The translations under genes and the position numbers were made by a program. 64,000 bases of DNA from IMG/VR virus record IMGVR_UViG_3300032070_000004, one strand, 5' to 3'. The notes beneath the pieces were generated by a model that was given only the letters and a program-made list of their open reading frames with translations, had not been told where the DNA came from and searched no databases. Positions 2,058 to 61,185 of the stretch are shown piece by piece. The stretch's first letter is position 1; every line of letters begins with the position of its first letter. The stretch is from an uncultured virus (IMG/VR IMGVR_UViG_3300032070_000004) (Duplodnaviria; Heunggongvirae; Uroviricota; Caudoviricetes).

Positions 2058-2126
2058 GGATACGGATTGCACCTCAACACTTATATAGTTTGCTGACGCA
2101 GAGACTCGCGATACGGGACAGGGGCA

Positions 2127-2816
2127 TCACACATCGAACTTACGGGGTCTATCTTGTTTCTTTGATTGCCAGTAATCCAACGTATCCACATTCATTATCG
2201 TAAGCCGTCCCATCCAACCCGCACCCGTGTCCATCATGATCAGATTACCTATGTGAATGGGGGTGTATCTTTCTTTCTGGACTAGCTCGGTGGAAGTATG
2301 TCCTATGAATACCATGTTGAAGTTTGGAATCCCCCCCTCGCGAAGTGCAAGTCCAATCAAGTCGCGGCTCCACATGAGATATTCCTGATCGTGTGGATTC
2401 GAAGCTTGATGTAGGAGAGGCACCCAGGGGTCAAACCCACCGTGGACGAATACATTGTTGTAATCGTCAACATAGTAATATCGCCCGCTTTCAAAGAATA
2501 TGCGATGTGTTTTGGGTATTTCGCGCCATTTGAAGTCGTACGAAGCCATAGTTGCTTTTCCACCCTGATGAACCCATAACGGAAGCTCGACCCCCGCGTT
2601 TATCCACGACATGAACCACTTGTCGTGGTTTCCCCATATGAAAATCTTATTTGGGATGCTTACGAGGATATCGACAGCTTCTTTAGTGTCGCTGCCGCCG
2701 TCTACAACGTCCCCGAGAATGATGAGGAGATCTTCGTTCTTGAACTTGCACTTTTCTAGAACATCCTGTAAAGCCACTGCTCTGCCATGGATGTCACCGA
2801 TAACGAATCTTCGCAT
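2127..2816 (-). CDS. Metallophosphoesterase (PPP-like Ser/Thr protein phosphatase)
   Basis: GDIHG, GDVVDGG, GNHD, VHGG, GHT and DTGA motifs. Confidence 0.92.
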   Translation of the reverse strand: MRRFVIGDIHGRAVALQDVLEKCKFKNEDLLIILGDVVDGGSDTKEAVDILVSIPNKIFIWGNHDKWFMSWINAGVELPLWVHQGGKATMASYDFKWREIPKTHRIFFESGRYYYVDDYNNVFVHGGFDPWVPLLHQASNPHDQEYLMWSRDLIGLALREGGIPNFNMVFIGHTSTELVQKERYTPIHIGNLIMMDTGAGWMGRLTIMNVDTLDYWQSKKQDRPRKFDV

Positions 2817-2822
2817 CTTGTT

Positions 2823-2990
2823 TCACTTGAATATACTCAGTATCGGGACGCCCGGCGATGAAGATATGTTGATTGGGAAGTACCGTGAGGTCAAGCTTGC
2901 TGCGATAACAGCTACCGCGGCGAAGAATCCAACCCACAGTGCGTCAGTTGCTACCCCACCCGCGATATGAGCATAATTGCATCTTGCCAT
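2823..2990 (-). CDS. 55-aa membrane protein (not in ORF track)
   Basis: MARCNYAHIAGGVATDALWVGFFAAVAVIAASL...; TATA-like box upstream on the minus strand. Confidence 0.55.
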   Translation of the reverse strand: MARCNYAHIAGGVATDALWVGFFAAVAVIAASLTSRYFPINISSSPGVPILSIFK

Positions 2991-3026
2991 GCTTAATGGT
3001 GAACGGTTATATTATAAAAGGTTTGC

Positions 3027-3683
3027 TCACAGGTAGATGATGAGGTCGTCTGGAATTCCGAGGCGGACAACATCGCGCGGAGTGAGATGCACAACGTCTT
3101 CTATTGAACCACCGCACTCCAAGCAAGTATCTGGTTCTTGATACTTTCCGTACCGACCCAAAACGTTTTCGTCCCACGTTTCGTTGCATTGTGGGCAGTA
3201 GTAGCTGAATATATAGAAGATATCTGGAGGAACAACTCCGCAGGAACTTCCGAGATAGTGTTTAAAGCTGAGGCGCGCTGGATGGGGACCGCACTTCGCA
3301 AAATGCCGTGGAACAAATTGTTTCACACAATCCACGAATCGCTTATCGCGGTGGGTGTGAAGAAATTCGTCCTTAAGCCATCGCGCATTATCTTCTATGA
3401 ACACCTTTATGTGGCACAGTTCGTGTGCTGGGAGTGCGACGATTACCTCACTATCGAGGTTGTACATGTTTGCTTCGATGAAGAGATTGTTTACGGCAAG
3501 CTCTACTCTCCGCCCGCCGAAGTGTTCAGCCCACATGTCCCACCGTGGGTGAATGGTGATGTACTTCACCTTGACAGCGTACCCCGGGGCAATATCATGG
3601 GCGTATCGCTGGACTCTGGCAGAGAACGTGTTCTTTGCAGCCGCAAGGTCGCGTGCGTACTGTTCCCCTCCGAGTAGTGCCAT
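3027..3683 (-). CDS. SprT-like zinc metalloprotease with C-terminal Zn ribbon
   Basis: HELCH, downstream H-x-H-x3-F, and two CxxC motifs. Confidence 0.65.
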   Translation of the reverse strand: MALLGGEQYARDLAAAKNTFSARVQRYAHDIAPGYAVKVKYITIHPRWDMWAEHFGGRRVELAVNNLFIEANMYNLDSEVIVALPAHELCHIKVFIEDNARWLKDEFLHTHRDKRFVDCVKQFVPRHFAKCGPHPARLSFKHYLGSSCGVVPPDIFYIFSYYCPQCNETWDENVLGRYGKYQEPDTCLECGGSIEDVVHLTPRDVVRLGIPDDLIIYL

Positions 3684-3688
3684 TATAC

Positions 3689-4186
3689 TTATGGTTCTTC
3701 ATCCGGGGATATAAGGATTGCGGCGACTGCGAGATTTCCGGTCGATATGAGGGCTCCGTAGTAAAGTGACTTCGGTGGCACTGAGTCGATTATTGCATCC
3801 TCATCTGAATTGTAGAGCCAATCATGGAGCCTCCATATTCCATCTGCGAATAGAGCATATCCCGCATACAGGTGAAATGACGCGGGATCATCTGCCACAG
3901 CATTGACAAAATCGGAAAGTTCGCTTTCAGGAGCATCGTCACTGACGCTGGTTGCGATCGCCCCGTCAAAGAAGTCCCCGCTATCAAGCATACCAGATAT
4001 GGTATTGACATCCATGGGAGGAACCGCGAGTGGAGGAATATCTACGAAATGCCCACCGTGGGAAATGAGGCGTGCAGCGAACAACACAGTACTCCACTTG
4101 CGGTAGTTCGAGTCGAATGCCACTGCGCTCTGGAAGCAGAGCTGCTCGGGTTTTATATTTGACATGAGGTGCGTCGCGTAGGTCAT
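3689..4186 (-). CDS. Hypothetical protein, possibly a papain/transglutaminase-like fold
   Basis: CF...GYAL..DG.WR.H.W...IID...YYG pattern. Confidence 0.45.
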   Translation of the reverse strand: MTYATHLMSNIKPEQLCFQSAVAFDSNYRKWSTVLFAARLISHGGHFVDIPPLAVPPMDVNTISGMLDSGDFFDGAIATSVSDDAPESELSDFVNAVADDPASFHLYAGYALFADGIWRLHDWLYNSDEDAIIDSVPPKSLYYGALISTGNLAVAAILISPDEEP

Positions 4187-4272
4187 CCAAACTGCGTATT
4201 GGTGCGAGAGGTATTAAAGATATTTAATTCCATGCGGATACCTTAATATACGATGAGGGGGCAACATTCATC

Positions 4273-4524
4273 ATGGTTAAAAAGAAGCTCAAGCGGGCAT
4301 TCCGTCCGGAGTATGATCCACGACGGGAGTTTGTTCCACTGGTGGGGGACTTCGTGCCGGGAAAAGGTTCTGGGAGAGGATTGCCTCGTGCGTCGGTTCG
4401 GCAGGAATACAACTACCCGGTCGAGCGCGGTGGTCTTGAAGAGGGAATCGTCTCACCAGAGGTTATAGGTGCTCTGACTGTCGTGGCGGCTATCGCTGTA
4501 TTCTTCCTCTATCGGAGAAAGTAA
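4273..4524 (+). CDS. Small protein with C-terminal membrane anchor
   Basis: Basic N-terminus, C-terminal TM segment followed by RRK. Confidence 0.6.
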   Translation: MVKKKLKRAFRPEYDPRREFVPLVGDFVPGKGSGRGLPRASVRQEYNYPVERGGLEEGIVSPEVIGALTVVAAIAVFFLYRRK

Positions 4525-4655
4525 TGGTGCGAAGAAAGATGTACCGCCATCCTCGCAGCAAACACGAGACGCGGTGGGCTCTGCTCGGGTTGGGCAGTGC
4601 CGTTCTTCTTATAGTGGGACTGGATTACATCACCAAGAGAAAGAATACAGTGTAA
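4524..4655 (+). CDS. 43-aa membrane peptide (not in ORF track)
   Basis: MVRRKMYRHPRSKHETRWALLGLGSAVLLIVGL...; start overlaps the previous stop. Confidence 0.5.
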   Translation: MVRRKMYRHPRSKHETRWALLGLGSAVLLIVGLDYITKRKNTV

Positions 4656-4699
4656 ATACAAACAATCGCAATCTTTTTAAATAAACAATACACTCAAGT

Positions 4700-5582: not shown

Positions 5583-6152
5583 ATGCCACGTAGAACCAAG
5601 GATGAGTCTGATGAGATCACCATCAAAATCTTCAAGATGAAGGTCGCGGGGAAGAAGAATAATGAGATTGCCCAAGAGCTTAACCTTCATCCAAGCACCG
5701 TGTCAACAAAATTGAGCAAGATGCGGAAACAGTTGAAAGACCTCGATGAGCGAGTTCAGCGCGGGGACATTGTATTGAGATCCACTGGGAGAGAGCAATC
5801 AACAGCGCTTGCAATTCCCACACAAAATCCCTTTAACCAGCTCCAGAGTTTCAGTGAGATGGCTGGAATTGTAAATGCCGGGGGAGCTGTTATTGGATCT
5901 GGAGCAGCAGCAGCGGTGAAAGCATTCAAAGATGAGTCGCTTCCATACGGGGAGAGAATGGAACTTGCCATGAAGGGTGGGGCGGTCCTGCTCGGGAGTG
6001 CCTTGTCTATCTATGCAACGATCCAAAACCTGACGAGAGAGGCAGAGAAACCACCGATGAAGAACGTAACATTATTACCTGCGACAACAACCATAACTTC
6101 CGAACCACCGGAGACGACCCCGACCGAGACTCGCGAGGCGGGGGTGAGGTAA
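5583..6152 (+). CDS. HTH DNA-binding protein with hydrophobic C-terminal segments
   Basis: GKKNNEIAQELNLHPSTVSTKL; ATG at 5583 preferred over the ORF-track start. Confidence 0.7.
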   Translation: MPRRTKDESDEITIKIFKMKVAGKKNNEIAQELNLHPSTVSTKLSKMRKQLKDLDERVQRGDIVLRSTGREQSTALAIPTQNPFNQLQSFSEMAGIVNAGGAVIGSGAAAAVKAFKDESLPYGERMELAMKGGAVLLGSALSIYATIQNLTREAEKPPMKNVTLLPATTTITSEPPETTPTETREAGVR

Positions 6153-6155
6153 AGC

Positions 6156-13500: not shown

Positions 13501-14923
13501 CAGGCAGGAAGTTGAGATCATTGCGTACCATATAAACCCGAGTGCTGAACACATTGCATCGATTGGAGTTGTTGATCCACAAACCAAGGAATACATAGAC
13601 GGATGGAGCGTGACCCCGACACTTGGTGGTCTCGCTACGATGTACTTCAGGTCAAATCGCATAGCGTATGAAAGTGCAAAGGTTGGGCTCGTGGTAAACT
13701 ACTTCAACACCATCGCATTCTATGTAGTTCTCCGCGTGAAGCACAATGTGGCAATAACATACGATCACGAGAAACAGGAGTTCAGTCCTCCGCTGCCTGT
13801 ATTTGAGGTTCCTCGGAAGAAAAAGAAGACGAAGGCAGAGAAGAAGGCAGAGAAGAAAGCGCGCAAAGAAGAGAAGAGACTCGCAACGCGGGGCGGGGGT
13901 GTAAGTGTAGAGAGGGTGGGCGGTAAGGTACATGATCTTGGGAAGCTTCTGATTCTTCAGGGCAACATACACGAGATATTTGAAGTAGTGAATCGTGACT
14001 ATCGCAAGCAGTACCAGAATCAATTGAACATGAAATCAAAGATTTCTACGTCTGCCAACACTGCTGACGTTGTAGTGGAGATACAACCGCCGACTGGGTA
14101 TCCGGTGGATGTTGTTGTGAGCACACTGGATCGTGATGGTGTTCCATTTTCTATTCCGGTGTGTATGATCAGAGTGGGTGGAATGGAAGTCGGGTGCAAC
14201 GTCAAAGGTCTGGAGCGAGCGCTTCGCGGTGTACTCGATATAACATTTCCCTTTGTGCCAGAGCCAAAGAAACGAGTAAAAGTAGATGGGCGGGTCGTAT
14301 CGGAGACCCCACCAAAGATGATGATTGGAGCGGAGTCCCCACCGTCCCGCGCGCTTGAAGATCCAGAAATCAAGATGGCACTGCATGAGTACCTGATGGA
14401 TCTAACCGTGTTCCTGAGCGAAGGATACCCCGGACCAGAACCCGGAGATGTGCATGAGATAAAGTCGTCAATGGGAAATTATTTGTCTCTTGTTACGCAC
14501 TACACAAATATAAACAAAGTAGATGTTGGCGATCACATTGGGGATCTAATACAAAAGGATGCATTTGGTCATGCAGTCTTTACTACATCCCTATATTTAT
14601 CGGAAGGATCACTTCGCAGTCTCCTTGGAATACTCAATACTTCGAATATAAAGAAGATGACGAATGTACCGATGACTCGCCTGAGTGCAATACTTGTCGA
14701 TGCGGAAAAATTGGGGAAGGTCATGGTAGAGTACGAATCGAGAAAGACACCAGCGGAGGGGAGAGCGGCGGAGGAATTCAAATCGTTCAAAAAAGAGAAG
14801 AAAGAGAAGAGGGAGAAGACTTACCGGTTCGACTCAGAGGCATATAAAGATACAGACCGTGGGCGCGGAAGCTTTCCAAAGCGCAGGCGTGGAGCAACGG
14901 AGCACGAGTATTCGCCTCCATAG
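10547..14923 (+). CDS. 1458-aa protein: N-terminal M20/M28-family metallopeptidase plus large unknown region
   Basis: NAHTDTV, GGDDKCG, EESG, LDRR and NMSVGYYNAH motifs in the first ~260 aa. Confidence 0.8.
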   Translation: MSPWVSEGLAKRPLRDVLIKHLVNLCRIFSPSGYELGVIEYCLPILKESGFDVNVSPEGNIYAVRGKTESGKYILLNAHTDTVQGNDDAAIMVHPDVVQYDPFWNIIWGHGHMVGGDDKCGIGIVLALAEATDTPMKVLLTVREESGCTGVDAVPKEFYKDATFCFTLDRRNCCDLIETYSGRKLAPKGLVDLILTIAKESKVSMTVADGSFADTHAISEHVPAVNMSVGYYNAHSSYDFIRVNETYDTLMILRRCFERQNEFETEWARTPVNWRPAVFPLVKRVYYDNYGFYGSLYGATGDVANDWEYKDRVNYSLDRYKKIDTKKSRKQAETEIKEEKEEKKEEEKKEEVVSPQRYSIAELIAKDDKEPVLRDPFGSTYGDLIWAERYNAAWEAQTAYPRVKIEKKWQAATYVPIGDAYPKSKARKYPEIIPSSVLIPDEGGRLIEIVSILLRTYPTYIAPSSNRVIHSMIITIGPPDNSDMLSGILGWMKMESTPPDPSRPPMWLPMLPDAGTVYEISMIYEEHPDTDLGYKIASLAADVATRIEDTKERSGRYQYRELSSAAYNSMIDMMAFADRMTTWFKSISKPGMLFEASATKQPRVDGWNSIGSVSIFRVFPPGPELFAAGALAVGAVREFEEEFFVYGDYKSLMVLKNLYYKKLDDQFDSMMDSLIKGEIADIESGKSVLLPVAPLKKPVGEPIAAIAESSLTIDDIEEIATLLTFSYSPETRKKGFPWRLREAARTFRLDPVAAGEFLRILAHIGTFTLNKPDGTHVTTVRYNLTYHGGQNFKNKTPNLIQPLMPIGSSSETPKGGVATSYTYHDTLGSVLDVYNDLGISSYDWVIASDRPWTGMKSEQSIADEAASDRVEAVIAEVEELAADAVDKLFEEWARMMEASEGVETDTPGTIQAAPSASDYSFAMPFFREDGTEMISSRDFANFAKKHKSVRLTSEEISLLTAGISNYADLLKTSGAQDMVSTDPKDRQEVEIIAYHINPSAEHIASIGVVDPQTKEYIDGWSVTPTLGGLATMYFRSNRIAYESAKVGLVVNYFNTIAFYVVLRVKHNVAITYDHEKQEFSPPLPVFEVPRKKKKTKAEKKAEKKARKEEKRLATRGGGVSVERVGGKVHDLGKLLILQGNIHEIFEVVNRDYRKQYQNQLNMKSKISTSANTADVVVEIQPPTGYPVDVVVSTLDRDGVPFSIPVCMIRVGGMEVGCNVKGLERALRGVLDITFPFVPEPKKRVKVDGRVVSETPPKMMIGAESPPSRALEDPEIKMALHEYLMDLTVFLSEGYPGPEPGDVHEIKSSMGNYLSLVTHYTNINKVDVGDHIGDLIQKDAFGHAVFTTSLYLSEGSLRSLLGILNTSNIKKMTNVPMTRLSAILVDAEKLGKVMVEYESRKTPAEGRAAEEFKSFKKEKKEKREKTYRFDSEAYKDTDRGRGSFPKRRRGATEHEYSPP

Positions 14924-15185: not shown

Positions 15186-18100
15186 ATGGTACGGCGGTAC
15201 AAGCGAGTGAGGAGGGGGTTAGAAGACCGACCACGCCCCGGAGAGGTGTGGGGAGCTTGGGGTGCCGTACTCAAGGAAGATGCTTCTGATAAGGACTTGA
15301 AAAAGTTTGTTGAAGATTGCATATTGTTATCCACCGAAGGAAAGTTTATATCTCTTGAAGAGGGCGGATATAAAGGATCATGCCTTGATTTCATATTCGA
15401 GAACCGTGGGAAACTAACGAAGACGGAAGTTTCTACGGTGGTGAGTCTTCTTGGGAGCGACCCAAGACTCAGGTTCGATTACTCAGCCCCCCTGTGTTCA
15501 AGCAACGGGGATCATATCTCGTGCGTGGGAAAGATTATTGATTATACTACTGAGGTTCTGGCAAAAACAGACAGCAAGGAAATCCGGGACGCGTTCACTT
15601 CATTTATCATGAATCAAAACGTTGATCTTGCCGCGCCGCTATGCAAGATTCCCGATGGATCATCGATAGCGTGCATACAGAAAGTCCTTGACGATGCTGC
15701 AAGTGTGGTGGCTCTCGAACAGAAGATGGCAACCGGGCAGTCGCTCATCCCATCATTTAAATCGGAGTGCAGGACGCTCGAAGACAATGAGAAAACTACA
15801 TGTATTGACAAGGTTCTTGATAACCTCATCCGGTATGGAAGTGATATCAAAGACGCAAAGTACAAACACAAGGATGCGTCGTATTATCAATCTCTCATAC
15901 GAGCAATGGCTGCAAACGAACACATGAGCGGGCTTTACGACCTCCTGCAAGAAGGAATGTTCTACGACACCGGTGCAGAAATGTTCGTAACCGGGTATGA
16001 CAAACTTATCCGAAGGATCGGAGACCGTGGGGTGCAACGTGACTTTCTAACTTCTACCGTAGATACCCTTATCGACGCGGGGGCATTCAATTATTCACGC
16101 CTCGCGCGCGATAACAAGGCGTGCAATCATCCATTTCTCGGCAAAGAATCGACATGTCTCGATACGGTACTTGCGCTGATGTATGATCGGATGCCTGAAA
16201 GCCCAACATCAAAGGCATTTCCGAAGTCCAGCGCGCGGAGATTTGCTGCGCTTGAGAAGATTGCAAATGCAGTTGCGCATAGTGTCAAGTTCGAAGAACA
16301 CAATTGCATTGCAATTCCTCCGCCCGGGAAAGAATGGAAAGACGAAACATTAAACTGCATATCTGCTGTCCTCGCAATTCCGTCCGACAAGCTCTCCGTC
16401 ACGGTGTTTGATCCGACGCGACTTACAAGCATCGTATCCAAGTCATGCAGGTACATAAAACCAGATGGAGAGGCAATTGAAATACCATGCTTCGAGGCAG
16501 TATTTCGGAGTGTTACATCGAGAGCCGAAAAGAACCCGGCGTATGATTACGGTCCGATTGCAAGAAGCATTGTCATGACCGATGGGGTCGATCTCGCAAA
16601 GCCATGCAATAACAAGGGATTTACCAGTGTGACTTCGTGCCTCGATCTGTTACTGGATATCGATACGAAGAACGAAGTCATCGATCATTACCTCCGCGGT
16701 GCCATAAAAACAGATTTCGGAAGGATTCCGTGCTCAATTCCCAAGGGATGGGACACGTACAACGCTTTCGATACGATGGTTACGGGAGCCGCTCTGCCGA
16801 TGAAGAACCCCGGGGAGTTCCAGCGAAAAGTCGTGGGAGACTCCACAAGCGCGGTGGGGGTGTCATGTCTCGACAAGATCATAACGATGACCATGCAGCA
16901 GAGTGTGGGTGGATTCTCCGATGTCTACAAGGCAGCGCGCGGGCGCGCTCCTCCGAACTTTGCAACACTGGGTCTTGCAATTCTCACCGGGGATGGAATA
17001 CGGGGAGATCCGCAGTGCCGGTATATCTACCCGGACGCCAACGAAAACCCAGTTGAAGCAACCGTGCCCTGCTATCAGAAGTATTTGGAATCCTTCATGC
17101 CAATGGATCGGGCATTGGGAGTGGTGCCGGGATACCTCAACGAACACATCCACGAAATGATTCATGATCTCGATCTATCGAAGCCATGCGTCCTGTACGA
17201 AGGCGGGGCACCCACGATAGCGCCGTGCATGGCTGCGATGTTTATTAAGTATGGAGTAAATCGTGCCCTCTATATAGACGATCGTGGGCGCACATTGGCG
17301 CGCGACGAGACGGGAAATTCTGATGACTTTCGATGTTCCCTCATTGGATCAAAGCACTTTGGGAAGATTATTGAGTCGGTAAAGAACCTTGCTGAGAACC
17401 CGAAGTACAAACCAAAGATCGGAGGGTTCCGAGATAAGATGTGCAATAATCTCATGTGCAAGAGCAAGCCCGGAGACGAGGACGGAATCGACAGGCGTAG
17501 TAAGGGCAAGCTCGGGAAGCTCATGTACTGTCACTGTGACGAGCACATCACTCCGGATGGGAAGTTTACCCCGGATGGCGCAACGTGCTTCGAAGATGCC
17601 TGCTATCATACCGTAGCTAAGTTCGGTCCAGATTATCCATGGAACGATTTCAAGCGGTTCTATGCAGCAGGAGACCAGATCCCACCACTTATAAGGTACG
17701 CAAATCAGTCTGCACCCAACGACGCGTATAAGTTCGGGGACATATCGGGGGTGTACGAAGTGACCCCGAAGATTTCTCCGTATGATTTCCACGTACGGCG
17801 TTACATCACGGAGTTCGTGAAGATCATTGACAAGATCTACGGGATCGCAACAGAGAACCCCGTGAGATTCGAGATCAACTCGGTGAACGTCAAGAAACTC
17901 ATGGAGATGACTGGAAAGAATACCTTAGAAGAGGCAGTTATGGTGGCAAAGAATCTTTCCGCGGAGCAGATGAATGAGATTGATAGTGGAAAGACGAAAT
18001 CCGAATCAAAGCCATCTATATCCATTTACTTTAAGAAAGGTGGCGCGCGGATCGACATCCCTGCAAACGTTGTCAAGACAGCAACAAAGATCACCTCGTA

Positions 18101-38816: not shown

Positions 38817-39289
38817 GGAGAGCAAAGTATGTGTAGAGATTGTAACATTTGTGGACCACATCCAAAAATGAGCAAGCAAGAAGCCGTCAACAGGGCGCTT
38901 GTAGTACATCTTGGAAAGGACATCGGGGATGCCCATCATCTCGTAAAATGCACCGTGTGCGGATGCAGTTGGATCAGCGATGTTGGTGGGTTCCCACAAG
39001 GTGACTCGCATAGCGGGGGCGAAGGGTGATGTTACTTCAATGCATAGTTTGTTCGCATGTGGAATGTTTCTTCCACAAGGAAGCCAAACAAGATCGTTCT
39101 CATCGCACGTTTTGGGATAAAAATTGTCAGGATTTCACGATTCTCCCACTCGATCCGCGTAGAAACCCAAATCATCCAAACGAAGTAAACCCGGATCTTG
39201 CAAAACACGTTGGTAGCATGGCAGATGACCTTCATTCGATGTTTCAGAAATTCGGTTTAGAGATATAATTCGAAGTAACCTTTTTATAC

Positions 39290-43157: not shown

Positions 43158-43616
43158 TATGAAGAAGTGGGCGGAGGATCAGCTAGAGCGAGTGACTGCG
43201 AAGATATGATGCAATCATAGCGAATCTACACAGTATGATGTACGAAGAATCGTAAGACTATAAATCGAAACCTTTTTTATATTGCACATCCCACGCATAT
43301 ACATAGGTGGGTAACATGATATCGTACATCAAGGTGAGATGCCCCGTGTGCCACGGATCTGGGCAAGTTGAGCCAACTTTCGGGCAAGGGGTCGCAGGAA
43401 CGGCAAGCACGAAAACGTGCCCCGCGTGCAATGGAACGGGGATGCAAGATGTTCGGGTGTAGATCACAAACTCTGCGAGGAGTGCATTCAACCTGAGGAT
43501 CAGACGAAAGAGATGCGGCTCCTGTACGCTCTCAGCGCGCAGATTCATTACCTGATGACACAGGAAGCCGAGAAGATTATGGAGACTCGCGCGGCGGGGC
43601 ATGGGGGGAGGAAGAA

Positions 43617-44123
43617 ATGAAAGGTAAGTACGTTGTGAAAAATGATATGACGATTCCCGCCGGAACATTTATCGACGTAATAGACGGAGAAATCTACTTC
43701 AACAATCGAAAGTCGGAGAAGCTGGAAGAGGTTATATACAAGTCAGAAATCGAACCGCTTTTCGGATCGCTCGCTGGACTTCCACCCGATCTTCATGATG
43801 AGAATGAAGGTCTTACCGAAGAGGAGCGCGAGTGGTTAAGATGCGTGGGCGTTCCAACGCGCACATATCGCCCCGTATCGCGAGTCTCCTATGGAAAGCA
43901 CCCCGAGAAGTGGATTACAAAAATCCTTCGAAAGACCGAGCGTGTTGGAAAAGACCTCGTATTCTATTACTCGGAGGATCTGAGCGAGTACGGGGAGATG
44001 ATCATCGTAGATGATTGGAATTACGGAAAGCACCCCGACGAAGATCTCAGTACCACGCGTGGGTTGTTCGCTCATCTGGATGGAATTCCGGATGAATTGT
44101 ACTATATGGAGGTGAAGGAATGA
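43617..44123 (+). CDS. Hypothetical protein
   Basis: 168-aa ORF. Confidence 0.55.
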   Translation: MKGKYVVKNDMTIPAGTFIDVIDGEIYFNNRKSEKLEEVIYKSEIEPLFGSLAGLPPDLHDENEGLTEEEREWLRCVGVPTRTYRPVSRVSYGKHPEKWITKILRKTERVGKDLVFYYSEDLSEYGEMIIVDDWNYGKHPDEDLSTTRGLFAHLDGIPDELYYMEVKE

Positions 44124-45206
44124 AAACTATGACCCCCGGAGAAGAGACGCGTTCCCTGCGGAAGTTCCCTCTTCCGTCCGAGGTTATTAACCTCACTGAA
44201 GACGACAATTTGCTTCCATCGCGTATCTATCATATTGACAGAAGACAACTGCCGCATCGACTTCAAGGAGAGACACAGCCGTGATCTTGATGAAGTAAAG
44301 TTTCGCGACAAATATCCAAAGGAGTATGAACAAATTCGTAGACGAATGATCGAAGATGCAACAAAATCGATTGATAGCCGCAATATCTCTCTTACCATCG
44401 CAGATGGAATCGTAGGAAAAACAAATGTGGATGAATTCTGTGAGATTACCATTACATCGGTTCCATTTGTAGTGCCGAAGAGACTCGCGCCGCGGGGGGA
44501 GGGTGTCTAATGACACGAACATACATTATCGAAATGCCCGATGACAAGATAATTTGGTTCGAGAGCGAACTTACGGAGCACTCATTTGGGAAGATCGTAG
44601 CGCACGCGGACGACTTTAATGCGCGCTCATTTATCAGGATGTGTCATCTCCCCGTGAACTGGGGAACGTGGGATGAAACTGGGAAGTTCCACGGCAGCAC
44701 GAATTACTCGGGAGAAGCCGTACGAAGCGTTCTTACTCTTGAGCCGAGGTAATCATGAGGTGAAGAAGTATGAACAACAAAATAACAACGTTTCCCAAAA
44801 TAATCGCTGCATGGGTTATACTTGCTCTACCGGCGATCATTGCGTGGGTTCTTATACCGGTTATGACCACATCCGTTCATTGGGCACTATATGCAATAAT
44901 GTCAGTATGCTACTGGGTCATACTCCCATGCGATTAGGATGAGTAACGCATGGAAATCGAACGAGATCCATACCTCCCCACGCGCGAGTGGTACGAGCGA
45001 ACTGCGGAGAGCATGAGAAAGGGCGAGAAGATAGATGCGTTCCTTCTTGTAGAATATGGCAGCCGGCTTCAGAAGATACTCGCAGATTCGTGCGCGGTAT
45101 TCCGGTGTCAGCCGGAACATCTGGTGCGCGTTGTTACTCGGTTCAAGCGAGAAATCGAAGAGAGGGAAGATATAATGATGCAACTCGAATGCGCTATGAG
45201 GTGCAG

Positions 45207-45689: not shown

Positions 45690-45794
45690 ATGTCCCGTAT
45701 ACGTAGTTAATACGTATACGGGACGTTCTTTCGAGGTTTCGGATAATACGGATAAATCGAAAAACCTTTATATACTTGTAAAACACACGCATAT

Positions 45795-46240
45795 ATGCAG
45801 GTGAGACGCAGGGATACAGTAGTATGGGGTGTTTGGAGTAGGAATTACCCTCTTTAACGTCCCCGAATCACGGAAATCCCATCGTTTTGCCCGCGCACAT
45901 GAAGATGAGGAGTAAAAAACAGGGCGACCCCGGCGGATGGCCCGGGTTTTCTCATCGGATTCATAGGTTCCAACAGCTCTTACGGCTGTACAGACGTAGA
46001 TTTCTCCCCGTCCCACGGGCGTGTGGGACGATTCAACACAACGTTTTCGTTGGGATGGGGTGGGATCGCTAGTGAACCTGTATGCAGACAATCTGTATAG
46101 TGTGCGCGGGGCGATTTCCGCGCGGGTAGAGGTATCAGATACCCCTGCCCCGCGGTACGAGTCTCTGATGGTGCGCGGGGTCAAACCCGTGTGCTATCTT
46201 CTCCCCTGTTTGTTGCCCCCGGGGGCATGGGGAACCAATC
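45795..46240 (+). ncRNA. Putative structured non-coding RNA A
   Basis: Class A promoter at 45753, no credible ORF, many hairpins with nested pairing. Confidence 0.45.
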
Positions 46241-46256
46241 GAATAAGGTGAAAAGC

Positions 46257-46526
46257 ATGACGCGAGACGTACGTGACATCAATGACATGCGCGCACTGGT
46301 GGCAGGTGGAGAGAACCTCCATGATGTAGTGTTTCACTACAAGTGCCCGGTGAGCGGGAAGAGAAAGAAGATTACCCTTGCATACGATGTGCGCGAGGAC
46401 GGTTCCACAGAGAACGGCGCTCGTATGTTCGTAGGCGACAAGACCCGGCTTGATGTAGTTCTCGAAGGAGATGGCAAGTCGGTTCGCACCCTCATCGACG
46501 AAGGCAAAGTTGCATACAAAGGCTAA
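46257..46526 (+). CDS. Paralog of 30927-31199
   Basis: DVVFHYKCPVSGKRKKIT...TRLDVVL; GGTGA RBS. Confidence 0.7.
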   Translation: MTRDVRDINDMRALVAGGENLHDVVFHYKCPVSGKRKKITLAYDVREDGSTENGARMFVGDKTRLDVVLEGDGKSVRTLIDEGKVAYKG

Positions 46527-46672
46527 CCTCCTTACCTAGCAATCTCCGATTGTTCGCGCGGGGCGATTCCCGCGCGCTAATCCCGCCTAGCGAGTCTCAA
46601 TGCACGGGTCAAACCGTGGGCGGGATATTCCCCCGGGGTCTAATCGGGTGACACCATCGCTCAACCGGGGAC

Positions 46673-47049
46673 GTGGGCAGAACAAGGCAAGGTAGCACTA
46701 TATGTAGTGCTCATTGTTCCATTACCCGAGATGCGTGCAGGGCGATGGCTGACGATGGGATCAGAGGTACGCGCGAATCGCAACACGCGGCGCGGAGCGT
46801 GAGTAAACCGCGAGATAAATTTAATTGTGTGAGAAGGTGGTGCGTTTGGGAGCGGGGATCAAGTACCCCCGCGCACCGTTGCCCTTCCGTTCACGTTTCC
46901 TCGATGGAATCTGTGAGTAGGGGCGCGCGTCCGAATAAAAGAACGGGAATAAGGCGCAATCCAACGGCTTTTTTGCCATAGGTCATCCCTCTGGTGGGTA
47001 CGGCGAATCTGTGTGTGTGTCTTTCACCAATTAATCACCCTGCCCACCA
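46673..47049 (+). ncRNA. Putative structured non-coding RNA B
   Basis: Terminal helix GTGGGCAG/CTGCCCAC; internal helix AGGGCGATGG/CCGTTGCCCT. Confidence 0.45.
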
Positions 47050-47087
47050 ACAATATTTTATACTTTTGCAACCCATCAACTAAGTGA

Positions 47088-47964: not shown

Positions 47965-48391
47965 GGTGAAACATGCACAAATTTTTATTACTCACATCGC
48001 AACTCGAAGTTAATGGTAGTCTCCCACCAGAGACCCATTCTACAGTCGTGTACGTAGAAGACAGGGATAAGTTCCTGACCTTTGTGCGAGCACAGAACTT
48101 ACAGGTACAAGTCTTCGATAGAGGAAAGGACACCCCCGCCCCGCAGGGCGGGTCTCAGGGGGAATACATCGTTATCATTCCCGCTGGGATGCAATTGAAT
48201 GGCGATGCTGCGATCAAGGACGTTCTTGATGCGGCAGAGATGGAAGAGATCGACCGGCACAAGTGCAAGGCGGTTAAAATAGGGTGAAGCATGAAACTCC
48301 CATGCGAAAGATGCAAAGAATGGATGGGGTGCGCGAAGAACCCCGCGCGGGTTGAGAAGTGCGAGAAGATGAAGAAGTACGTGGAGGAATC

Positions 48392-48585: not shown

Positions 48586-49410
48586 ATGGTATCAAAGAGG
48601 TCAATGTGGAAGGGGTTTGTTTCCATCGGGCTTCTTAATGTCCCGGTGAAGATGATCACCATGCGCGAGGACAAGAAGATCAGCGCGCACATGTACCGCG
48701 CGGCTGATCTGTCTCCGATCAAGATGCCCAAGGTGGCAGAGAAGGATGGCGCGGTTGTTCCCTACAACGAAATCGTGTTCGGGTACGAGATAGACGGCGG
48801 GAAGGAGATTGTCATCCTCAGCAAGGCAGAGAAAGAGGCGGCAAAGGTGGAGAGCGATCACAAGATCGCGGTGGAAGGGTTCGTTCCGGTTGAGGAGATC
48901 GATCAGATGTACTTCGACGGGGCGTACATCCTCATTCCCGATGGTATGCCCGGGGCATATTCTCTCCTTCTTGAAGCGTTCAAAGTGCGTGGGAAGGCAG
49001 GGATCGGGAAGATCACCGTGCGGGAGAAGGAGTACATTGCCATAGTCCACGCTTATGAGGGTGGACTGGTCTTATCGACTCTCAAATATCAGGATGAGGT
49101 TGTCATGCCTCGCGAGGTTGACGACCTGAAAGCGCTCCCGGTGGCTAACCCGAATGAGCTCAACCTTGCAGTCAGTATCATTGATGCGCTCGCGGCGAGG
49201 TTCGACCTTACCAAGTACCACGACGGGGCGCGCGAAAAGCTCCTCAGTATCATCGAAGCCAAGAGGCATGGAGAGGTCATAGTGGCAGAGCCGGTGCAGG
49301 TGGAGAAACCCGCAGCTCTCATGGACGCACTGAAGGCGGTGCTGGCAGAAGTGGAGAAACAGAAGGTGGAACACCCCCTCGCCCCGCAGGGCGAGATACC
49401 CGCGAGATAG
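48586..49410 (+). CDS. ku: Ku protein (non-homologous end joining)
   Basis: RSMWKGFVSIGLLNVPVKM, GYE, FVP.EEID.MYFD..Y, FDLTKYHD and LMDALKA motifs. Confidence 0.92.
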   Translation: MVSKRSMWKGFVSIGLLNVPVKMITMREDKKISAHMYRAADLSPIKMPKVAEKDGAVVPYNEIVFGYEIDGGKEIVILSKAEKEAAKVESDHKIAVEGFVPVEEIDQMYFDGAYILIPDGMPGAYSLLLEAFKVRGKAGIGKITVREKEYIAIVHAYEGGLVLSTLKYQDEVVMPREVDDLKALPVANPNELNLAVSIIDALAARFDLTKYHDGAREKLLSIIEAKRHGEVIVAEPVQVEKPAALMDALKAVLAEVEKQKVEHPLAPQGEIPAR

Positions 49411-51160: not shown

Positions 51161-51842
51161 AAAACATGACACCGGGAGATTACACTTTCAAGAAAGGATG
51201 CGAAGACCTCATCCATGTGAAGAACGCAGTGCGGTTTTTGCTCTACCGATGCAAGGAGATAGACGATGAGATACGCACCTACGGCGCGGATAACGAGGCG
51301 TACCAATCCCTGATCGATGCAATTTCAGGCACCAAGTGGGATACCCCCACCCCGCCGCGCGAGTCTCGCCCCGCGGTCGATGAGCAGAAGCTTCTCAAAT
51401 GGGTAGGCATCCATGCAGACACCAGCAACCCGCGTGGGTTTGTAGTGTCGGTTAACGATTTACAGGGTGCGATACGAAGAGGAGAGTTCAAATGATGAAA
51501 CTATCCACAGCTATAATTTTTGGCGTTTCAGCAACATTCTTTGGAATTACGACGAATCTGATAACGCATTCGTATGTTGGTGTCTTTGTCACCGAAGGAA
51601 TATATTTCTTGTTTCTTGGGTTGGATCATTGGCTCAAACCAGACAAGGTAGGGTCGCGTGAGGAGGGTAAAACATGAAGCGGTTACACAAGACCATCAAG
51701 AACAATTTCTTGTTTCGGATCGAACAAGAGATCCGGATATTCCTTTGGAAACCATTCTACCCTCCGGAGCTCTTTGAGCACGATCCGGATGGGGGCACGA
51801 GAGCGGTGTACGTCGGATATTTCGAGCGAAAAGAGGACTTAC

Positions 51843-53628: not shown

Positions 53629-54764
53629 AGTGATACCAATGCCAAACCCCGGATCAGACAAGGCATTGAAATTATCTTGTTGCTGCCCGGTGTTTGACAA
53701 CTGCCGCGGCAAGGGACTTGGTGGTGGTCTCTTCTGGATCAACCAGAGGTGCCCGGTCCATGGTGAGAAGCGAGTCGCGAGTAGCGAGACGCGAGTTGAG
53801 ACTCGCGATACGGGGAGTGGGGGATAACAACTATGCCCCCATCCACACCGGGTGGAACCGGGAAGGCATGGCGGAGGTCAATTTACGTCGGAATTCCAAC
53901 CGCGCGCAAACTGCCCCGCAATGAGGAGGAGGAGTAAATGGTAGCCATAGATTTAGCATGTCAGGAAAAACTGAAAGCGGCTGAGGAGGAAATCGAGCGG
54001 CTCAAGGCTGAGGTCGCGCGCCTCCAATCAATGGTCGCGTACCTGAAGTACCCCCATGCCGGGGATATTCCGTCAGATGCCCCGGGAAAGGGAGCTCCGT
54101 TCTACCAACCGCCCAGCTTTCATTAATCGAAAGACTTATATATCGAGCAAACCAACTCAGACTAAGCGAGGCAATTATGAAAGTAGATGCAAAACTCAAA
54201 CTGAAAATGATGAATAACACCCGCGAGAGATACCTGAAAAAGCAGTACGGTGGCACGGTGTGCGACTGCATGATGTATGAAGGAGATGGAACTCCGACGC
54301 TCGGATGGTATGGCAATGTCTCCGACGATTGACCCGGTGATGTTCGCAATCGATTCGGGAGCAAACGACGATGCGTTCAAAATCCTCTACGAGCGGCTCC
54401 GAAACTGTATCGCCGCGCAGCACAAGTGCGACGGGAACTACGGCTTCGGCAAGTGTAAAGAAGTCGGACGGTATTGCTTCGAGATAGAGTCTTGTGAGCA
54501 TTGGAGCCACACTCCGGGGTGAAAAAACATGGACTCGGTTGTTATCAGTATCCAGCCCTACATGGTGCGGGTATTCGGTTCGGTCGAGTACACTACATAC
54601 CATCTCGAAGACAAAGAATCGTTCGACTGTTTCATGAAACTGCTTAAGCGGGTTGACGGTTGCAACGATGACGACTACTGCCTGATACTCTTCGATGAAC
54701 TTCTTGAAAGGGAGAAGAGCATCCGGTACACGGTTACGGATGGGGCACCAATTGATAGAGAAGA

Positions 54765-58283: not shown

Positions 58284-59523
58284 CGCGGGGCACCCTCGCC
58301 CCGCAGGCGGAGTCTCACATGGATGATCACGAAGAACTGGAGGTCGAAGAGGAGATAATACAGGCTCTCAATGGGATCGACCCAACCGGGGAGCTTGCGG
58401 AGAGATGGGGAAAGGGCGAGGCACTCGCGCAAATCCTCCACAATGCTGATGAATTTGTCGCTGGTATGTTCCACGCTGGGCATAGCGGTATGGAGATCGC
58501 TACGTTCGGTCTTCGGATCTTCATGCTTGGGCAACTCGTTCATACCAAGAACGTCATCAAGGCATTGAAGTACATCCCACCACAAGACGATCTCTGTGGG
58601 GATCTGCGGTCGTACCAGTAAGTGCGAGAGGCGAAGTATGAAAAACGAGAAACCAAAACTTGAAAAAATGCAAATCAAAGTTACGCGGATGCTGAACAAG
58701 AATGGCGACGAGATGTACTACATCGACTCGATCGAGGGAATCGCAACGCGCGAAGAACTCCCGAACGAGTACCTCGATGGAGACTGCGCGTATCTCTCGG
58801 AGTTCCCCGGGAAGCGCGTCGGTATCTACCTGTCACCGCGTGGCAAGAGTATTGTTGTAGGAACGAAGATGACACGCGTGGACTTCGAGAAGTCCCTGAT
58901 GTTCATCAATGCGTGCGGAACCCGCCTCACGGCAATCAACGCGAAGATCGAGGAGAAGCGCAAGAAGTGGATGGGCTCTGAGACGTACGAAATCTGAGGT
59001 AACTATGGTCGGAAAGAAAGAATGTGTGATAGCCACCGGCGCAGCCGCAGGATCAACTGCGTGGCTTCTCATCGCACAGGTAGTGTTGCTGGTTCTCTAC
59101 TATGGGTTCCATGTGATCCTTCCGTGGTGGGTACTGTTCCTGCCGCTGCTGTACTTTGTGTGGGGAGCTGTAACTGGATTCCTGTCGCATGTAGTGTGAG
59201 GCAATCATGGGTCGAATTGTGGATGCATTAGTAACCACAGTCCTCGGCATCGTCGGGATGATAATTGCATTCCTGATCGTGGTTGTCGTTATCATCGGAC
59301 CATTCATCGCAGTGGGAGCTGGTCTTGCCTTCGGGGTATGGATCGTGCTCAAGCTACTGGGGGTGTGGTAATGGCAACCACCATCCACCATCCAGTGCCC
59401 ATATTGTAGCGATGGTGGTACTCCTTGTTTAGTTATCGAAATCCCGGTTGGTGAATATAGATTCAAGGAACTTTACCAATGCAGGGTTTGTAAATCTATA
59501 TGGATAGAAAATGAGGATTATAC

Positions 59524-60117
59524 ATGAAGTATAAAACATTAGTCGCGGACCCACCGTATAGATACCGGAACAAGACCACGGGTGGCTCCATGAACTCTGG
59601 CAGCAAGGACAAGTATTCCACGATGTCCCTTGAGGACATCATAGACATGCCCGTTTGGGACATCGCAGACCCAAAGGGATCTATCCTGTTCCTGTGGGCA
59701 ACTACCCCGCTTCTTGACGACTGCATGATGGTGATGCATGAGTGGGGATTCCGGTACTTCACGTCTCTCTACTGGGACAAGCAGAAGTACGGGCTTGGGT
59801 ACTGGTGGCGCGGGACGATGGAACAGTGTCTCGTTGGGATGCGCGGTCATGTGAAAGCATACCGCTGCCAGAAGGTGAACTGCATCCGGGTCAAGGCGCG
59901 CGCGCACAGTCAGAAACCCGATGAATTCTGGTCTCTTATAGAGCCTTACTGCGAGAGCCCACGCATCGAACTCTTCTGCCGCGGGGAACCGCGCCCGGGG
60001 TGGGATGGATGGGGCAAAGAATGCACCAACCCAATCAAGATCGACACCCTAGCCCCGCAGAGCGAGTCACCTTTCTGCGTCTTCATGCAATGGCAGCATT
60101 TCATCCCTCCGAGTTGA
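59524..60117 (+). CDS. MT-A70 family N6-adenine methyltransferase
   Basis: ADPPY, Y.TMSL..I, LFLWAT, WGF.Y, GLGYW.RG..E, HSQKP, IELF.R and GWD.WG.E motifs. Confidence 0.92.
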   Translation: MKYKTLVADPPYRYRNKTTGGSMNSGSKDKYSTMSLEDIIDMPVWDIADPKGSILFLWATTPLLDDCMMVMHEWGFRYFTSLYWDKQKYGLGYWWRGTMEQCLVGMRGHVKAYRCQKVNCIRVKARAHSQKPDEFWSLIEPYCESPRIELFCRGEPRPGWDGWGKECTNPIKIDTLAPQSESPFCVFMQWQHFIPPS

Positions 60118-60146: not shown

Positions 60147-60151
60147 CGTTT

Positions 60152-60223
60152 GGGATTGTGGGGTAGTGGTTAGCCTCCGTGCCTTGGGAGCACGGGTCGC
60201 ATGTTCGATCCATGCCAATCCCA
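60152..60223 (+). tRNA. tRNA-Pro(TGG)
   Basis: GGGATTG/CAATCCC+A; CGTGC-CTTGGGA-GCACG. Confidence 0.88.
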
Positions 60224-60226
60224 TGC

Positions 60227-60299
60227 ACTCCCGTGGGGTAGTGGTCAAGCCCGCTCGCCCTTGAAGCGAGCAACGACAGTTCGAATCTGTCCGGGAGTT
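60227..60299 (+). tRNA. tRNA-Gln(TTG), atypical C33
   Basis: ACTCCCG/CGGGAGT; CTCGC-CCTTGAA-GCGAG. Confidence 0.75.
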
Positions 60300-60549
60300 T
60301 CCCGCCTGCATTCGGCGGTATAGAAATGGAATGCCGAGTAAGTCCCTTCCGAAAAGGATGAGGATGCCTTTGGGTGGTGTGACGAAGTAGGAAGGGGTTC
60401 GAAAACTCCTTGCCTAACTGGGCTAAACCGCCTGTATCGGCGGTATAAACAAGTAGAACTGGTGCCGTGGATAGACAACCGGTTGAAGGATACGTCGTCC
60501 GCACGACATGAGCGGTGGGGTGCGCCAAACACCCCGCCCATAATAGTGA

Positions 60550-60623
60550 GTCCCCGTAGTTACAATTGGAAGAACGGCTGCTTTGCAAGCAGATGGCTGC
60601 GGATTCGAGTTCCGCCGGGGACA
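60550..60623 (+). tRNA. tRNA with TGC (Ala) anticodon, lacking G3:U70
   Basis: GTCCCCG/CGGGGAC+A; CTGC-TTTGCAA-GCAG. Confidence 0.75.
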
Positions 60624-60757
60624 TAACCGCTTTGATCGGCGGTATAGAAATAGATCACCAACTGTGGCGACGCCCGGTTCGGCATTGCAGAGTCAGGTGC
60701 GGCGATGCCACGCGCGGCGCAGTCTTGCAATGCCCGGCGCTGCGAGGCAAGGAAAGC

Positions 60758-60829
60758 GGACCCGTAGGAGAGCGGAAATCCTCCGGACTCTTAATCCGGC
60801 AATCGTGCGTTCGAATCGCACCGGGTCCG
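60758..60829 (+). tRNA. tRNA-Lys(CTT)
   Basis: GGACCCG/CGGGTCC+G; CCGGA-CTCTTAA-TCCGG. Confidence 0.9.
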
Positions 60830-60832
60830 CTC

Positions 60833-60905
60833 AGCTCCCTCGTCTAGCGGTCAAGGATGCGCGCCTCTGGAGCGCGCGGCGGAGGTTCGAATCCTCCGGG
60901 AGCTA
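60833..60905 (+). tRNA. tRNA-Gln(CTG)
   Basis: AGCTCCC/GGGAGCT+A; loop CTCTGGA. Confidence 0.9.
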
Positions 60906-60938
60906 TTACCGCGAAATCCCGCGCGGGATAAAAAGTAC

Positions 60939-61043
60939 GGTGTGTGGTAAGGTTAGGTGTGGTGTGGTGGGGTATGGTGTGGTGTGGTGTGGTGTGGTAA
61001 GGTATGGTTTGGTAGGGTGAGGTGTGGTTCGGTAAGGTAAGGC
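60939..61043 (+). repeat. Degenerate GGTNN pentamer tandem array
   Basis: About 20 units of the type GGTGT/GGTAA/GGTAT. Confidence 0.9.
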
Positions 61044-61185
61044 ATTCGCGAGGCGGTTCGCCCCGCCTCGCGAGTCTCCCGGGATATCCGGGGTTATGGT
61101 ACGGTGAGGTGTGACGCGGAGTCGATGAAGATTGAGGCATCATAATAAATCGAAACACTTTTATTCTCAAAGAGCATACGCAGAT

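Follow-up and report, generated by a model that had tools for sequence, protein, structure and literature searches.

We analysed a stretch of 64,000 nucleotides of an uncultured virus (IMG/VR record IMGVR_UViG_3300032070_000004; Caudoviricetes), in the following called the window, which was taken out of a 76,440-bp metagenomic contig. The window contains 21 copies of an asymmetric, three-part sequence word of about 27 nt. The word is conserved at the nucleotide level, is enriched at gene ends and changes its prevailing orientation close to 45 kb, and from the databases scanned it appears private to this lineage. Tentatively, and with somewhat less than even confidence, we consider the copies as an array of putative binding sites for one virus-encoded DNA-binding protein that may act as a polar barrier or silencer and would work like the stoperators of actinobacteriophages.

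Copy number, shape and placement of the word

The word was searched with the core pattern CCCCG-N4-GCGAGTCTC, allowing up to 2 mismatches. For CCCCGNNNNGCGAGTCTC at ≤2 mismatches we obtained 20 matches in the window. Dinucleotide-preserving shuffles gave 0.49 matches on average and 2 at most, and none of 100 shuffles reached 20. This confirms a motif of about 20 copies, as reported in the initial annotation. All ten minus-strand copies listed there were found again at the same positions (2101, 6126, 13876, 26334, 30443, 32068, 39001, 43582, 44480 and 53798). The ten plus-strand copies are equally real, with cores starting at 37136, 43871, 46148, 46581, 48139, 49382, 51350, 58299, 60053 and 61061. 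For seven of them the approximate starts that had been given (37132, 46142, 48133, 49374, 51344, 58293 and 60047) lie 4–8 nt too early, with the upstream C-run included.

A position matrix was derived from 19 seed copies and compared with 30 first-order Markov simulations, in which the highest score was 16.2. The matrix recovered the degenerate copy at 49382 (+) with a score of 22.2 and yielded one extra copy at 16837 (−) with a score of 17.6. A two-mismatch match at 37503 (−) scored only 7.8, i.e. below the maximum of the null. It was dropped as a chance half-site and left out of every count of 19 or 21 given here. The final census comprises 21 copies.

Alignment of 19 copies provided a conserved block of about 27 nt, (A)CACCCC-N-G-CCCCGC-NNN-GCGAGTCTC. 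The word is thus asymmetric and consists of three parts: a C-run, CCCCGC and GCGAGTCTC. On either side of it the information content of the 19 aligned copies is at background level. The unconserved flanks of such a short word rule out a longer mobile element as well as gene paralogy, and no paralogy link between the motif-bearing genes was found in an all-against-all BLAST of the window proteins. The word is read in several frames, giving ETRxAG, RLAxRG, GDSxxGG, PAPQxxS or PxSRVS, and C-terminal tails encoded by individual copies are ETREAG, ATRRAG, ATRAAG, ETRAAG, ETRDTG, RLAPRG and GDSHSGG. In a helix-turn-helix (HTH) protein, the tail that holds the copy at 6126 falls outside the region alignable to a 64%-identical homologue. 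Given this tail, the many frames, the unconserved flanks and the lack of a shared RNA fold (see below), conservation is at the nucleotide level, in agreement with what had been proposed from the differing frames and the frequent position in C-terminal tails. A reading as a restriction site was rejected, since GAGTC is not depleted elsewhere (100 observed versus 93.7 expected).

The placement of the copies relative to genes is not random. For ten of 19 copies a predicted stop codon is found at a distance of up to 50 nt, compared to 2.7 copies for random placement (p = 0.0002, 20,000 trials). The initial annotation had mentioned neither this enrichment at gene ends nor the Shine-Dalgarno position of six minus-strand copies described next. 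Relative to the local genes 13 copies are sense and 8 are antisense. Six of the antisense copies are located in the final 9–13 codons of a gene, such that their G-rich complement ends 7–18 nt before the next start, in the position of a Shine-Dalgarno sequence. The copy at 6126..6143 (−, 0 mismatches) occupies the final 9 codons (ETREAGVR*) of the HTH gene 5346/5583-6152, with the G-run and GGTGAGGT 12 nt before the ATG at 6156. The copy at 30443..30460 (−) lies in the final 12 codons of 30173-30478 and ends 7 nt before the ATG at 30468. At 39001..39018 (−) the end codons of a small Cys-rich open reading frame (ORF; 38829-39029) are covered, ending 10 nt before the ATG at 39029. The copy at 43582..43599 (−, 0 mismatches) is found in the final 13 codons of 43417-43620, where its G-run GGGGGGAGG constitutes the Shine-Dalgarno sequence of the ATG at 43617. 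The copy at 44480..44497 (−, 0 mismatches) lies in the final 10 codons of 44235-44510 and ends 12 nt before the ATG at 44510. The sixth, at 53798..53815 (−), takes up the final 10 codons of the small Cys-rich gene 53621-53827 and is accompanied by an inverted half-site GCGAGTCGC at 53770. The remaining two antisense copies lie deep within giant ORFs: 13876..13893 (−) in a Lys/Glu-rich stretch of a 1458-aa ORF (10547-14923), and the degenerate copy acacccccaCCGCGCTTGTGGAGTCTC at 16837..16854 (−) in a 1462-aa ORF (15186-19574).

Five sense copies are found just past stop codons. The copy TCCCGTATCGCGAGTCTC at 2101..2118 (−) lies 9 nt past the stop of the minus-strand gene 2127-2816, ahead of a TATA-like box and the gene that comes next. 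Two further ones sit at convergent gene junctions: 26334..26351 (−), 10 nt past the stop of the minus-strand gene 26361-28016, and 32068..32085 (−), 39 nt past the stop of the minus-strand gene 32124-32630. The former also overlaps the final 13 codons of the plus-strand RNase H-like gene 25950-26372 and was counted as sense despite this overlap. The copy at 46581..46598 (+) begins 55 nt past the stop of ORF 46257-46526, and the one at 58299..58316 (+, 2 mismatches) lies 16 nt past the stop of 57792-58283 and ends 2 nt before the ATG at 58319. Altogether two of the four convergent junctions carry a full copy, and a third one carries a bare half-site GCGAGTCTC at 40201.

Two sense copies are close to gene ends: the degenerate copy CCCCGCAGGGCGAGATAC at 49382..49399 (+), in which GCGAGATAC replaces GCGAGTCTC, covers end codons of the Ku gene 48580-49410, and the copy at 60053..60070 (+) belongs to the final 22 codons of the gene for an MT-A70 methyltransferase (59524-60117) and precedes the first of two tRNA arrays by 80 nt. 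Four more are located in Pro/Gly/Ser-rich stretches of small genes, namely 37136..37153 (+; within ORF 36892-37299 or intergenic, 286 nt downstream of a promoter-like sequence at 36850), 43871..43888 (+; gene 43617-44123), 48139..48156 (+; gene 47973-48287, encoding DTPAPQGGSQ) and 51350..51367 (+, 0 mismatches; gene 51154-51495). The last two sense copies are in non-coding DNA. The one at 46148..46165 (+) lies 395 nt downstream of a promoter-like sequence at 45753 and about 90 nt before ORF 46257-46526, and the one at 61061..61078 (+, 0 mismatches) is found between the two tRNA arrays, 68 nt upstream of a promoter-like sequence at 61146.

Orientation of the copies and the central locus

The minus strand carries 10 of the 12 copies left of 45 kb (the exceptions being 37136 and 43871), and the plus strand carries 8 of the 9 copies right of it (with the exception of 53798). 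This upholds the strand split previously described as 9 of 11 and 8 of 9. The orientation breaks between 44.5 and 46.1 kb, with 18 of the 21 copies being consistent with the break. When the breakpoint was left free and either direction was allowed, such a split had a p-value of 0.019 for random strands and of 0.0076 for shuffled strands. For the 19 seed copies alone (16 of 19 consistent) the corresponding values were 0.048 and 0.021. The peak in density noticed at 43–51 kb was likewise found, since 8 of the 21 copies fall within 43.58–51.37 kb, i.e. 12% of the window.

A codon-usage model trained on 22 confident genes placed genes on the plus strand on both sides of 45 kb, with nearly all genes from 4.2 kb onward in this direction. 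Exceptions past 4.2 kb are the minus-strand genes at 21200-22249, 26361-28016, 32124-32630 and 40344-42636. Because the genes run in the plus direction on both sides, with 13 sense and 8 antisense copies, the orientation of the word is uncoupled from gene direction and is better described by the position relative to about 45 kb. The initial annotation had further suggested a comparison with GC skew. In the 2-kb bins on either side of 45 kb the skew was still positive (+0.120 and +0.110), and it was negative only in three 2-kb bins that carry minus-strand genes. Without a flip at the switch the skew gives no independent sign of an origin or terminus at 45 kb.

The orientation switch coincides with a low-coding central locus at 45690..47087 (+). 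This locus had been taken as non-coding; it is not empty, as it contains a hairpin, the promoter-like sequence at 45753, two structured repeat units that both bear the word, and ORF 46257-46526, which encodes 89 aa and has a good codon-usage score. It is followed by a tRNA-Glu gene at 47088. Approximately 400 nt of highly structured sequence follow the promoter-like sequence, and a second structured stretch follows the ORF. The copies at 46148 and 46581 are part of a duplicated unit of about 100 nt, consisting of a hairpin GCGCGGGGCGATTYCCGCGCG, the word, a hairpin GGGTCAAACC and CCCCCGGGG. The two units, A (about 46097-46230) and B (about 46549-46645), flank the ORF. Both are predicted to fold better than shuffled sequences (z = −3.4 and −2.1). 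The pairing partner of the word lies on the upstream side in one unit and on the downstream side in the other, and these differing partners indicate that the word itself has no conserved fold. A structured-RNA motif was rejected for the same reason: the two central copies fold well but unlike each other. The duplicated units match no Rfam family; matches in the window were limited to tRNAs, a DUF3800-X RNA and spurious microRNA hits. The unit could be a pair of non-coding RNAs or an origin element.

The hairpin of the central locus (45689-45727) is a 17-bp inverted repeat of 94% complementarity with a 5-nt loop. It lies directly past the stop of an HNH/endonuclease VII gene, with a T-rich run behind it. 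It resembles a terminator and was the source of the spurious microRNA matches.

Distribution of the word and genetic setting

The 727-aa protein encoded next to the copy at 6126 has 12 relatives among public proteins (28–55% identity). A scan of metagenome contigs provided 12 related loci (L061-L072; 30–55% identity) on contigs of up to 125 kb. These 12 loci share a syntenic module, corresponding to 2127-10523 of the window, with genes for a metallophosphatase, the HTH protein, the 727-aa zinc-finger protein, a 119-aa protein, a 245-aa protein and an ArsR-type winged helix-turn-helix (wHTH) protein. The module defines an uncharacterised group of viruses or elements. In the 112.8 kb of these 12 loci no copy of the word was found at ≤2 mismatches, where about 35 would be expected at the density of the window. 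Isolated GCGAGTCTC occurred only in two near-identical related loci. Where the HTH gene meets the gene for the 727-aa protein, a conserved junction, 11 of 11 relatives lack the word and have an ordinary GGTGA-type ribosome site instead. Counts of k-mers and gapped dyads (one of them on 9 of the 12 loci) revealed no alternative high-copy word in the related loci, only coding tandem repeats and weak AT-rich words. Absence from related genomes had been named beforehand as speaking against the motif. The word is indeed absent from all 12 loci; we read this as lineage specificity and not as a refutation, since the nearest relative has only 55–64% protein identity.

An exact scan outside these loci, run on IMG/VR, found 60 contigs with a single match each. 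In the GTDB species genomes 22 single matches were found, all in bacterial records, compared to a rough chance expectation of about 17; the pattern used there was a stricter 18-position form that is matched by 4 of 19 window copies. None of the viral and prokaryotic genomes scanned in IMG/VR and GTDB had more than one match. From these sequence comparisons the word appears to be private to this lineage and not a repeat of the host, and as only singletons were found, its reader is more likely encoded by the virus than by the host. Among 50,697 phage records no close relative was detected by megablast of the 43–52 kb region or by tblastn of two proteins, and searches of IMG/VR with Ku and the 727-aa family returned no relative.

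Strain differences were followed in three sediment runs, using assembled contigs only, in which rare forms, read starts and nicks are invisible. A contig of a second sample has 20 nt, including a GTGAGGT ribosome site, where the window has a 352-bp segment (38675-39026). The segment comprises the end of one gene, an entire small Cys-rich gene and the copy at 39001, with the right border 8 nt away from this copy. In addition, a contig of the source sample agrees with the window through the end of the copy at 43871 and diverges from position 43889 onward. Its sequence beyond 43888 had no match in the window at ≤3 mismatches, and recombination between copies with the same spacer was rejected for this loose end. 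Contig joints at 43298 and 43300 fall in a repeated promoter-like sequence and are taken as assembly-graph effects.

The promoter-like sequences mentioned above form a family of eight near-identical members, all on the plus strand, that consist of TAAATCGAAACCTTTTTTATAT, about 14 nt and CACGCATA. They are located at 19588, 30855, 32678, 35090, 36850, 43261, 45753 and 61146 and precede either a Shine-Dalgarno sequence with an ATG or a tRNA. We take them to be archaeal promoters made of a B recognition element (BRE), a TATA box and an initiator. A weaker member is found at 31204 and a version with the TATA part only at 53593. The tRNA-Ile(UAU) gene at 61863-61959 (+), which was detected by Rfam and missed by ARAGORN, carries a 26-nt insertion directly after anticodon-loop position 37, presumably the canonical site of archaeal tRNA introns. 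The insertion argues for an archaeal host. The element also encodes a XerA/XerC-like tyrosine recombinase, an integrase that suggests a temperate lifestyle. We consider it as a large virus or virus-like element that is probably temperate and belongs to a sediment archaeon. No capsid or terminase gene was identified when the window proteins were compared with a protein atlas, PDB sequences, NCBIfam and PHROG.

Further genes comprise 14–15 tRNA genes in arrays, repair and ligation genes (Ku, ATP-dependent DNA ligase, RNA ligase), two DNA methyltransferases, the HNH/endonuclease VII protein, three LAGLIDADG ORFs, surface-type proteins (PKD, beta-propeller, DUF2341) and the giant ORFs of 1458 and 1462 aa. 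The two arrays at 60151-62075 contain 12–13 tRNA genes, including the intron-bearing tRNA-Ile, with the DUF3800-X RNA (60332-60404) in the first array. A pair of tRNA-Leu genes is found at the start of the window (79-255). The cluster at 48580-52880 encodes Ku, the ATP-dependent DNA ligase with a LigD-like core, a transglutaminase-like protein and the RNA ligase (PHA02142 OB fold and RNA_ligase); in effect this is a module for end joining or repair in an archaeal virus. A DNA methyltransferase-like protein (33251-33832) has its C-terminal 75 aa duplicated with 69% identity in a separate small ORF (34058-34303), and 32732-33106 encodes only the N-terminal domain of a nicotinamide phosphoribosyltransferase. 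After the promoter-like sequence at 43261 a 48-aa CxxC zinc-ribbon ORF (43316-43462) overlaps out of frame with 43417-43620, the ORF that carries the copy at 43582; the two may be a frameshifted or overlapping gene pair. Homing-type ORFs are located at 296-781, 8614-9192 and 20826-21203 (LAGLIDADG) and at 44988-45689 (HNH/endonuclease VII). Low codon-usage scores of two of the LAGLIDADG ORFs and of the HNH ORF suggest homing genes that were recently acquired or are decaying.

Possible roles of the array

In the reading that we favour, the sites would have settled at positions that can be tolerated: in the final codons of genes, shortly past stops, in linker-like stretches within genes and in non-coding DNA. 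The bound protein would provide an orientation-dependent barrier or silencer. Such an action is the most likely one given an asymmetric site of which most copies point away from the locus at 45.7–47 kb. The barrier would act on a DNA-tracking machine that moves outward from this control locus, with RNA polymerase being the first and the replisome the second candidate. No secondary structure was common to the two copies that were folded, which argues for recognition as double-stranded sequence. We infer protein binding, its possible agents and its effect from the properties of the sites. Candidate binders encoded by the element are the GerE/sigma-r4-like HTH protein (5583-6152), the ArsR-type wHTH protein (10146-10523) and many small Cys-rich or zinc-ribbon proteins, among them those of 38487-38816, 38829-39029, 43316-43462 and 53621-53827. 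The products of 20515-20829 and of ORF 46257-46526 and the 727-aa zinc-finger protein may be considered as well.

In PMC9283540 and PMC6550527, stoperators are described as numerous asymmetric sites that are spread over the genome and are bound by a monomeric immunity repressor that stops elongation. PMC6550527 adds that their consensus forms genome-specific "dialects" and that they hold one orientation relative to transcription. The array found here is similar to the stoperators of the Cluster A mycobacteriophages L5 and Bxb1 in that tens of asymmetric, lineage-specific sites are distributed genome-wide (21 in 64 kb here). Stoperators frequently occupy short gaps between genes or extend over a stop or start codon, and in phage L5 their orientation reportedly flips between the genome arms. 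The stoperator, however, has 13 bp, whereas the word has about 27 nt and three parts. The arms of L5 are transcribed in opposite directions, while here both arms are transcribed rightward and yet the word flips. Furthermore, no operator-like copy is found on any of the eight members of the promoter-like family. With an archaeal host, as suggested by the TATA/BRE promoters and the tRNA intron, the polymerase to be blocked would also be a different one.

A number of observations weigh against such an array. The constant orientation of stoperators relative to transcription fails here: with plus-strand genes on both arms and copies in the sense as well as the antisense direction (13 and 8), the word does not follow transcription. 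For this reason we only claim that the sites would work like stoperators, not that they are stoperators. Within the one promoter family that was mapped, no copy overlaps any of the eight strong promoters, the nearest being the one 68 nt upstream of 61146. From the initial proposal of a polar signal around 45.7–47 kb the asymmetric word and the position-linked orientation stand, but the polarity is moderately significant, suggestive rather than compelling (p about 0.01–0.05). A local rule, according to which copies are sense by default and antisense where the G-run forms the Shine-Dalgarno sequence of the next gene, also fits 18 of the 21 copies. At the central locus no promoter facing outward on the minus strand was found, such that a machine moving leftward is hypothetical. 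The HTH and ArsR genes are conserved in the relatives that lack the word and are thus not obviously its readers. Lastly, identical 4-nt spacers recur (9 identical pairs versus 4.4 expected, p = 0.03), which hints at copying instead of independent site selection. The spacer sub-families are GTATC (three copies), CCGC (three), CCTC (two), CGGT (two) and CAGG (two), and a T at spacer position 1 is invariably paired with ATC.

The spacer sub-families would be in agreement with a copied element or recombination site that borders exchangeable gene cassettes, comparable to attC sites of integrons, the borders of pdif modules or sfx sites of shufflons, and that is spread by the recombinase or nuclease of the element. 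We consider this explanation unlikely. It would account for the gain of the word in this lineage at a junction that is word-less in 11 of 11 relatives and for the location of copies at gene borders. It also fits the replaced 352-bp segment with a copy near its right end, the contig that diverges right after the copy at 43871, and the presence of the XerA-like integrase, the HNH endonuclease and the three LAGLIDADG ORFs. However, only a single indel was seen, its left border is without a copy, and the loose end of the diverging contig is not in the window; comparison of the flanks gave no inversion with either of the two copies that share its spacer. Target-site duplications or terminal repeats were not found. 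Core sites of tyrosine recombinases consist of two binding arms around a 6–8-nt spacer and leave recombinant junctions at the sites. In contrast to dif/pdif, attC and sfx sites, the arms of the word are unlike each other and not inverted repeats, its spacer has 3–4 nt, and no joint linking two copies was seen in the contigs of the three runs, in which rare forms are hidden.

The flip of 18 of the 21 copies independently of gene direction could instead reflect a polar signal for replication, segregation or repair around an origin or terminus at 45.7–47 kb, akin to the FtsK-orienting polar sequences (KOPS), Ter or Chi. In a related version the word would be a private polar DNA code of about one copy per 3 kb that points, whatever the gene direction, away from one control or origin locus on both arms and is read by a virus-encoded protein in order to orient or stop a replisome, a translocase or RNA polymerase, i.e. 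an archaeal viral counterpart of KOPS or Ter without homology to known systems. Both versions appear rather unlikely to us. The density peak beside the switch (see above) and the low-coding, repeat-rich and highly structured locus with which the switch coincides are in favour of such a role, and the word would be on the lagging-strand template if forks left the central locus. On the other side, GC skew changes sign only under minus-strand genes and not at 45 kb, three exceptions to the polarity lie close to the switch, and its p-value is only 0.01–0.05. A fork trap would be of little need in a 76-kb replicon. Among the 98 window ORFs no Pfam match to FtsK/SpoIIIE, ParB, Tus/RTP, Orc1/Cdc6, MCM or Rep was found.

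A comparison with the individual systems leads to a similar picture. The word lacks, as far as testable, one or more defining features of each of the elements to which it had initially been likened (KOPS, Chi, Ter, parS and the origin recognition box, ORB). With KOPS, the SpoIIIE recognition sequences (SRS) and Chi it shares the strand polarity and the orientation switch at one locus. KOPS and Chi are 5–8-nt words spread through coding DNA, and KOPS/SRS and Chi occur in hundreds of copies that co-vary with the replication skew; the word, in contrast, has 27 nt and is enriched at gene ends, and the skew stays at +0.120/+0.110. Their readers FtsK/SpoIIIE and RecBCD/AddAB were not found among the 98 ORFs, and to our knowledge KOPS/SRS and Chi are not known in archaea. 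The Tus-Ter and RTP-Ter systems resemble the array in having asymmetric sites of about 23–27 bp in two opposed groups around one locus (18 of 21 copies here), and Ter sites are denser near the terminus. They differ from it, since GC skew shows no terminus at the switch, about 21 sites per 64 kb are a very different scale, the word is enriched at gene ends and the host is probably archaeal. No homologue of Tus or RTP was found among the window ORFs in Pfam, NCBIfam and PHROG. The parS sites of ParB are palindromes of about 16 bp that cluster at the origin and go along with a ParB gene, whereas the word is asymmetric, is dispersed over 59 kb and has no ParB match in the window. Archaeal ORB and mini-ORB elements combine a dyad with a G-string and occur in few copies, inverted around an AT-rich unwinding element next to an Orc1/Cdc6 gene. 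The complement of the word has a G-string-like run, but a dyad is lacking; the copies are dispersed, and the window has no Orc1/Cdc6 match.

A role at the RNA level is improbable in our view. Here, the mRNA of antisense copies would carry GAGACUCGC-NNN-GCGGGG-NNN-GGGGG before the start codon as an extended ribosome-binding or start-associated sequence, and sense copies could pair with it and thereby control translation. The six of eight antisense copies with the G-run in Shine-Dalgarno position, 7–18 nt before the next start, are in agreement with this, as is the central locus, where two sense copies lie in predicted structured RNA behind a strong promoter. A precedent are the start-associated sequences and extended start-associated sequences (SAS/ESAS) of Cluster K mycobacteriophages, which PMC3203893 describes as 13 bp long, located 3–7 bp before start codons and including the Shine-Dalgarno core. 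According to the same paper, they too are asymmetric repeated words that often overlap the upstream stop and are confined to one group. Unlike these, which are nearly all in one orientation before starts, only 6 of the 21 copies are so placed and 13 are opposite. A role of this kind does not apply to the two antisense copies deep in giant ORFs, nor to those at minus-strand genes and between the tRNA arrays. The proposed pairing partners have mismatching spacers, and pairing between copies is a consequence of how the word is defined and not independent evidence. In tight operons, moreover, anything in the last 10 codons precedes a start codon.

Arrays of the stoperator kind are already known. 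New is a private array of asymmetric sites in an archaeal virus that is uncoupled from gene direction. Outside actinobacteriophage stoperators we know, also from a literature search that was not aimed at archaeal cases, of no experimentally characterised genome-wide private asymmetric protein-binding array. If our favoured reading of a binding-site array is true, silencing or insulation of a whole genome by one repressor would have arisen independently for archaeal, TBP/TFB-dependent transcription. It would provide a handle on lysogeny control in uncultured viruses of sediment archaea as well as a ready-made orthogonal DNA-protein pair. Should the polarity reflect replication or translocation, it would be the first time that a polar architecture signal is found in an archaeal virus.

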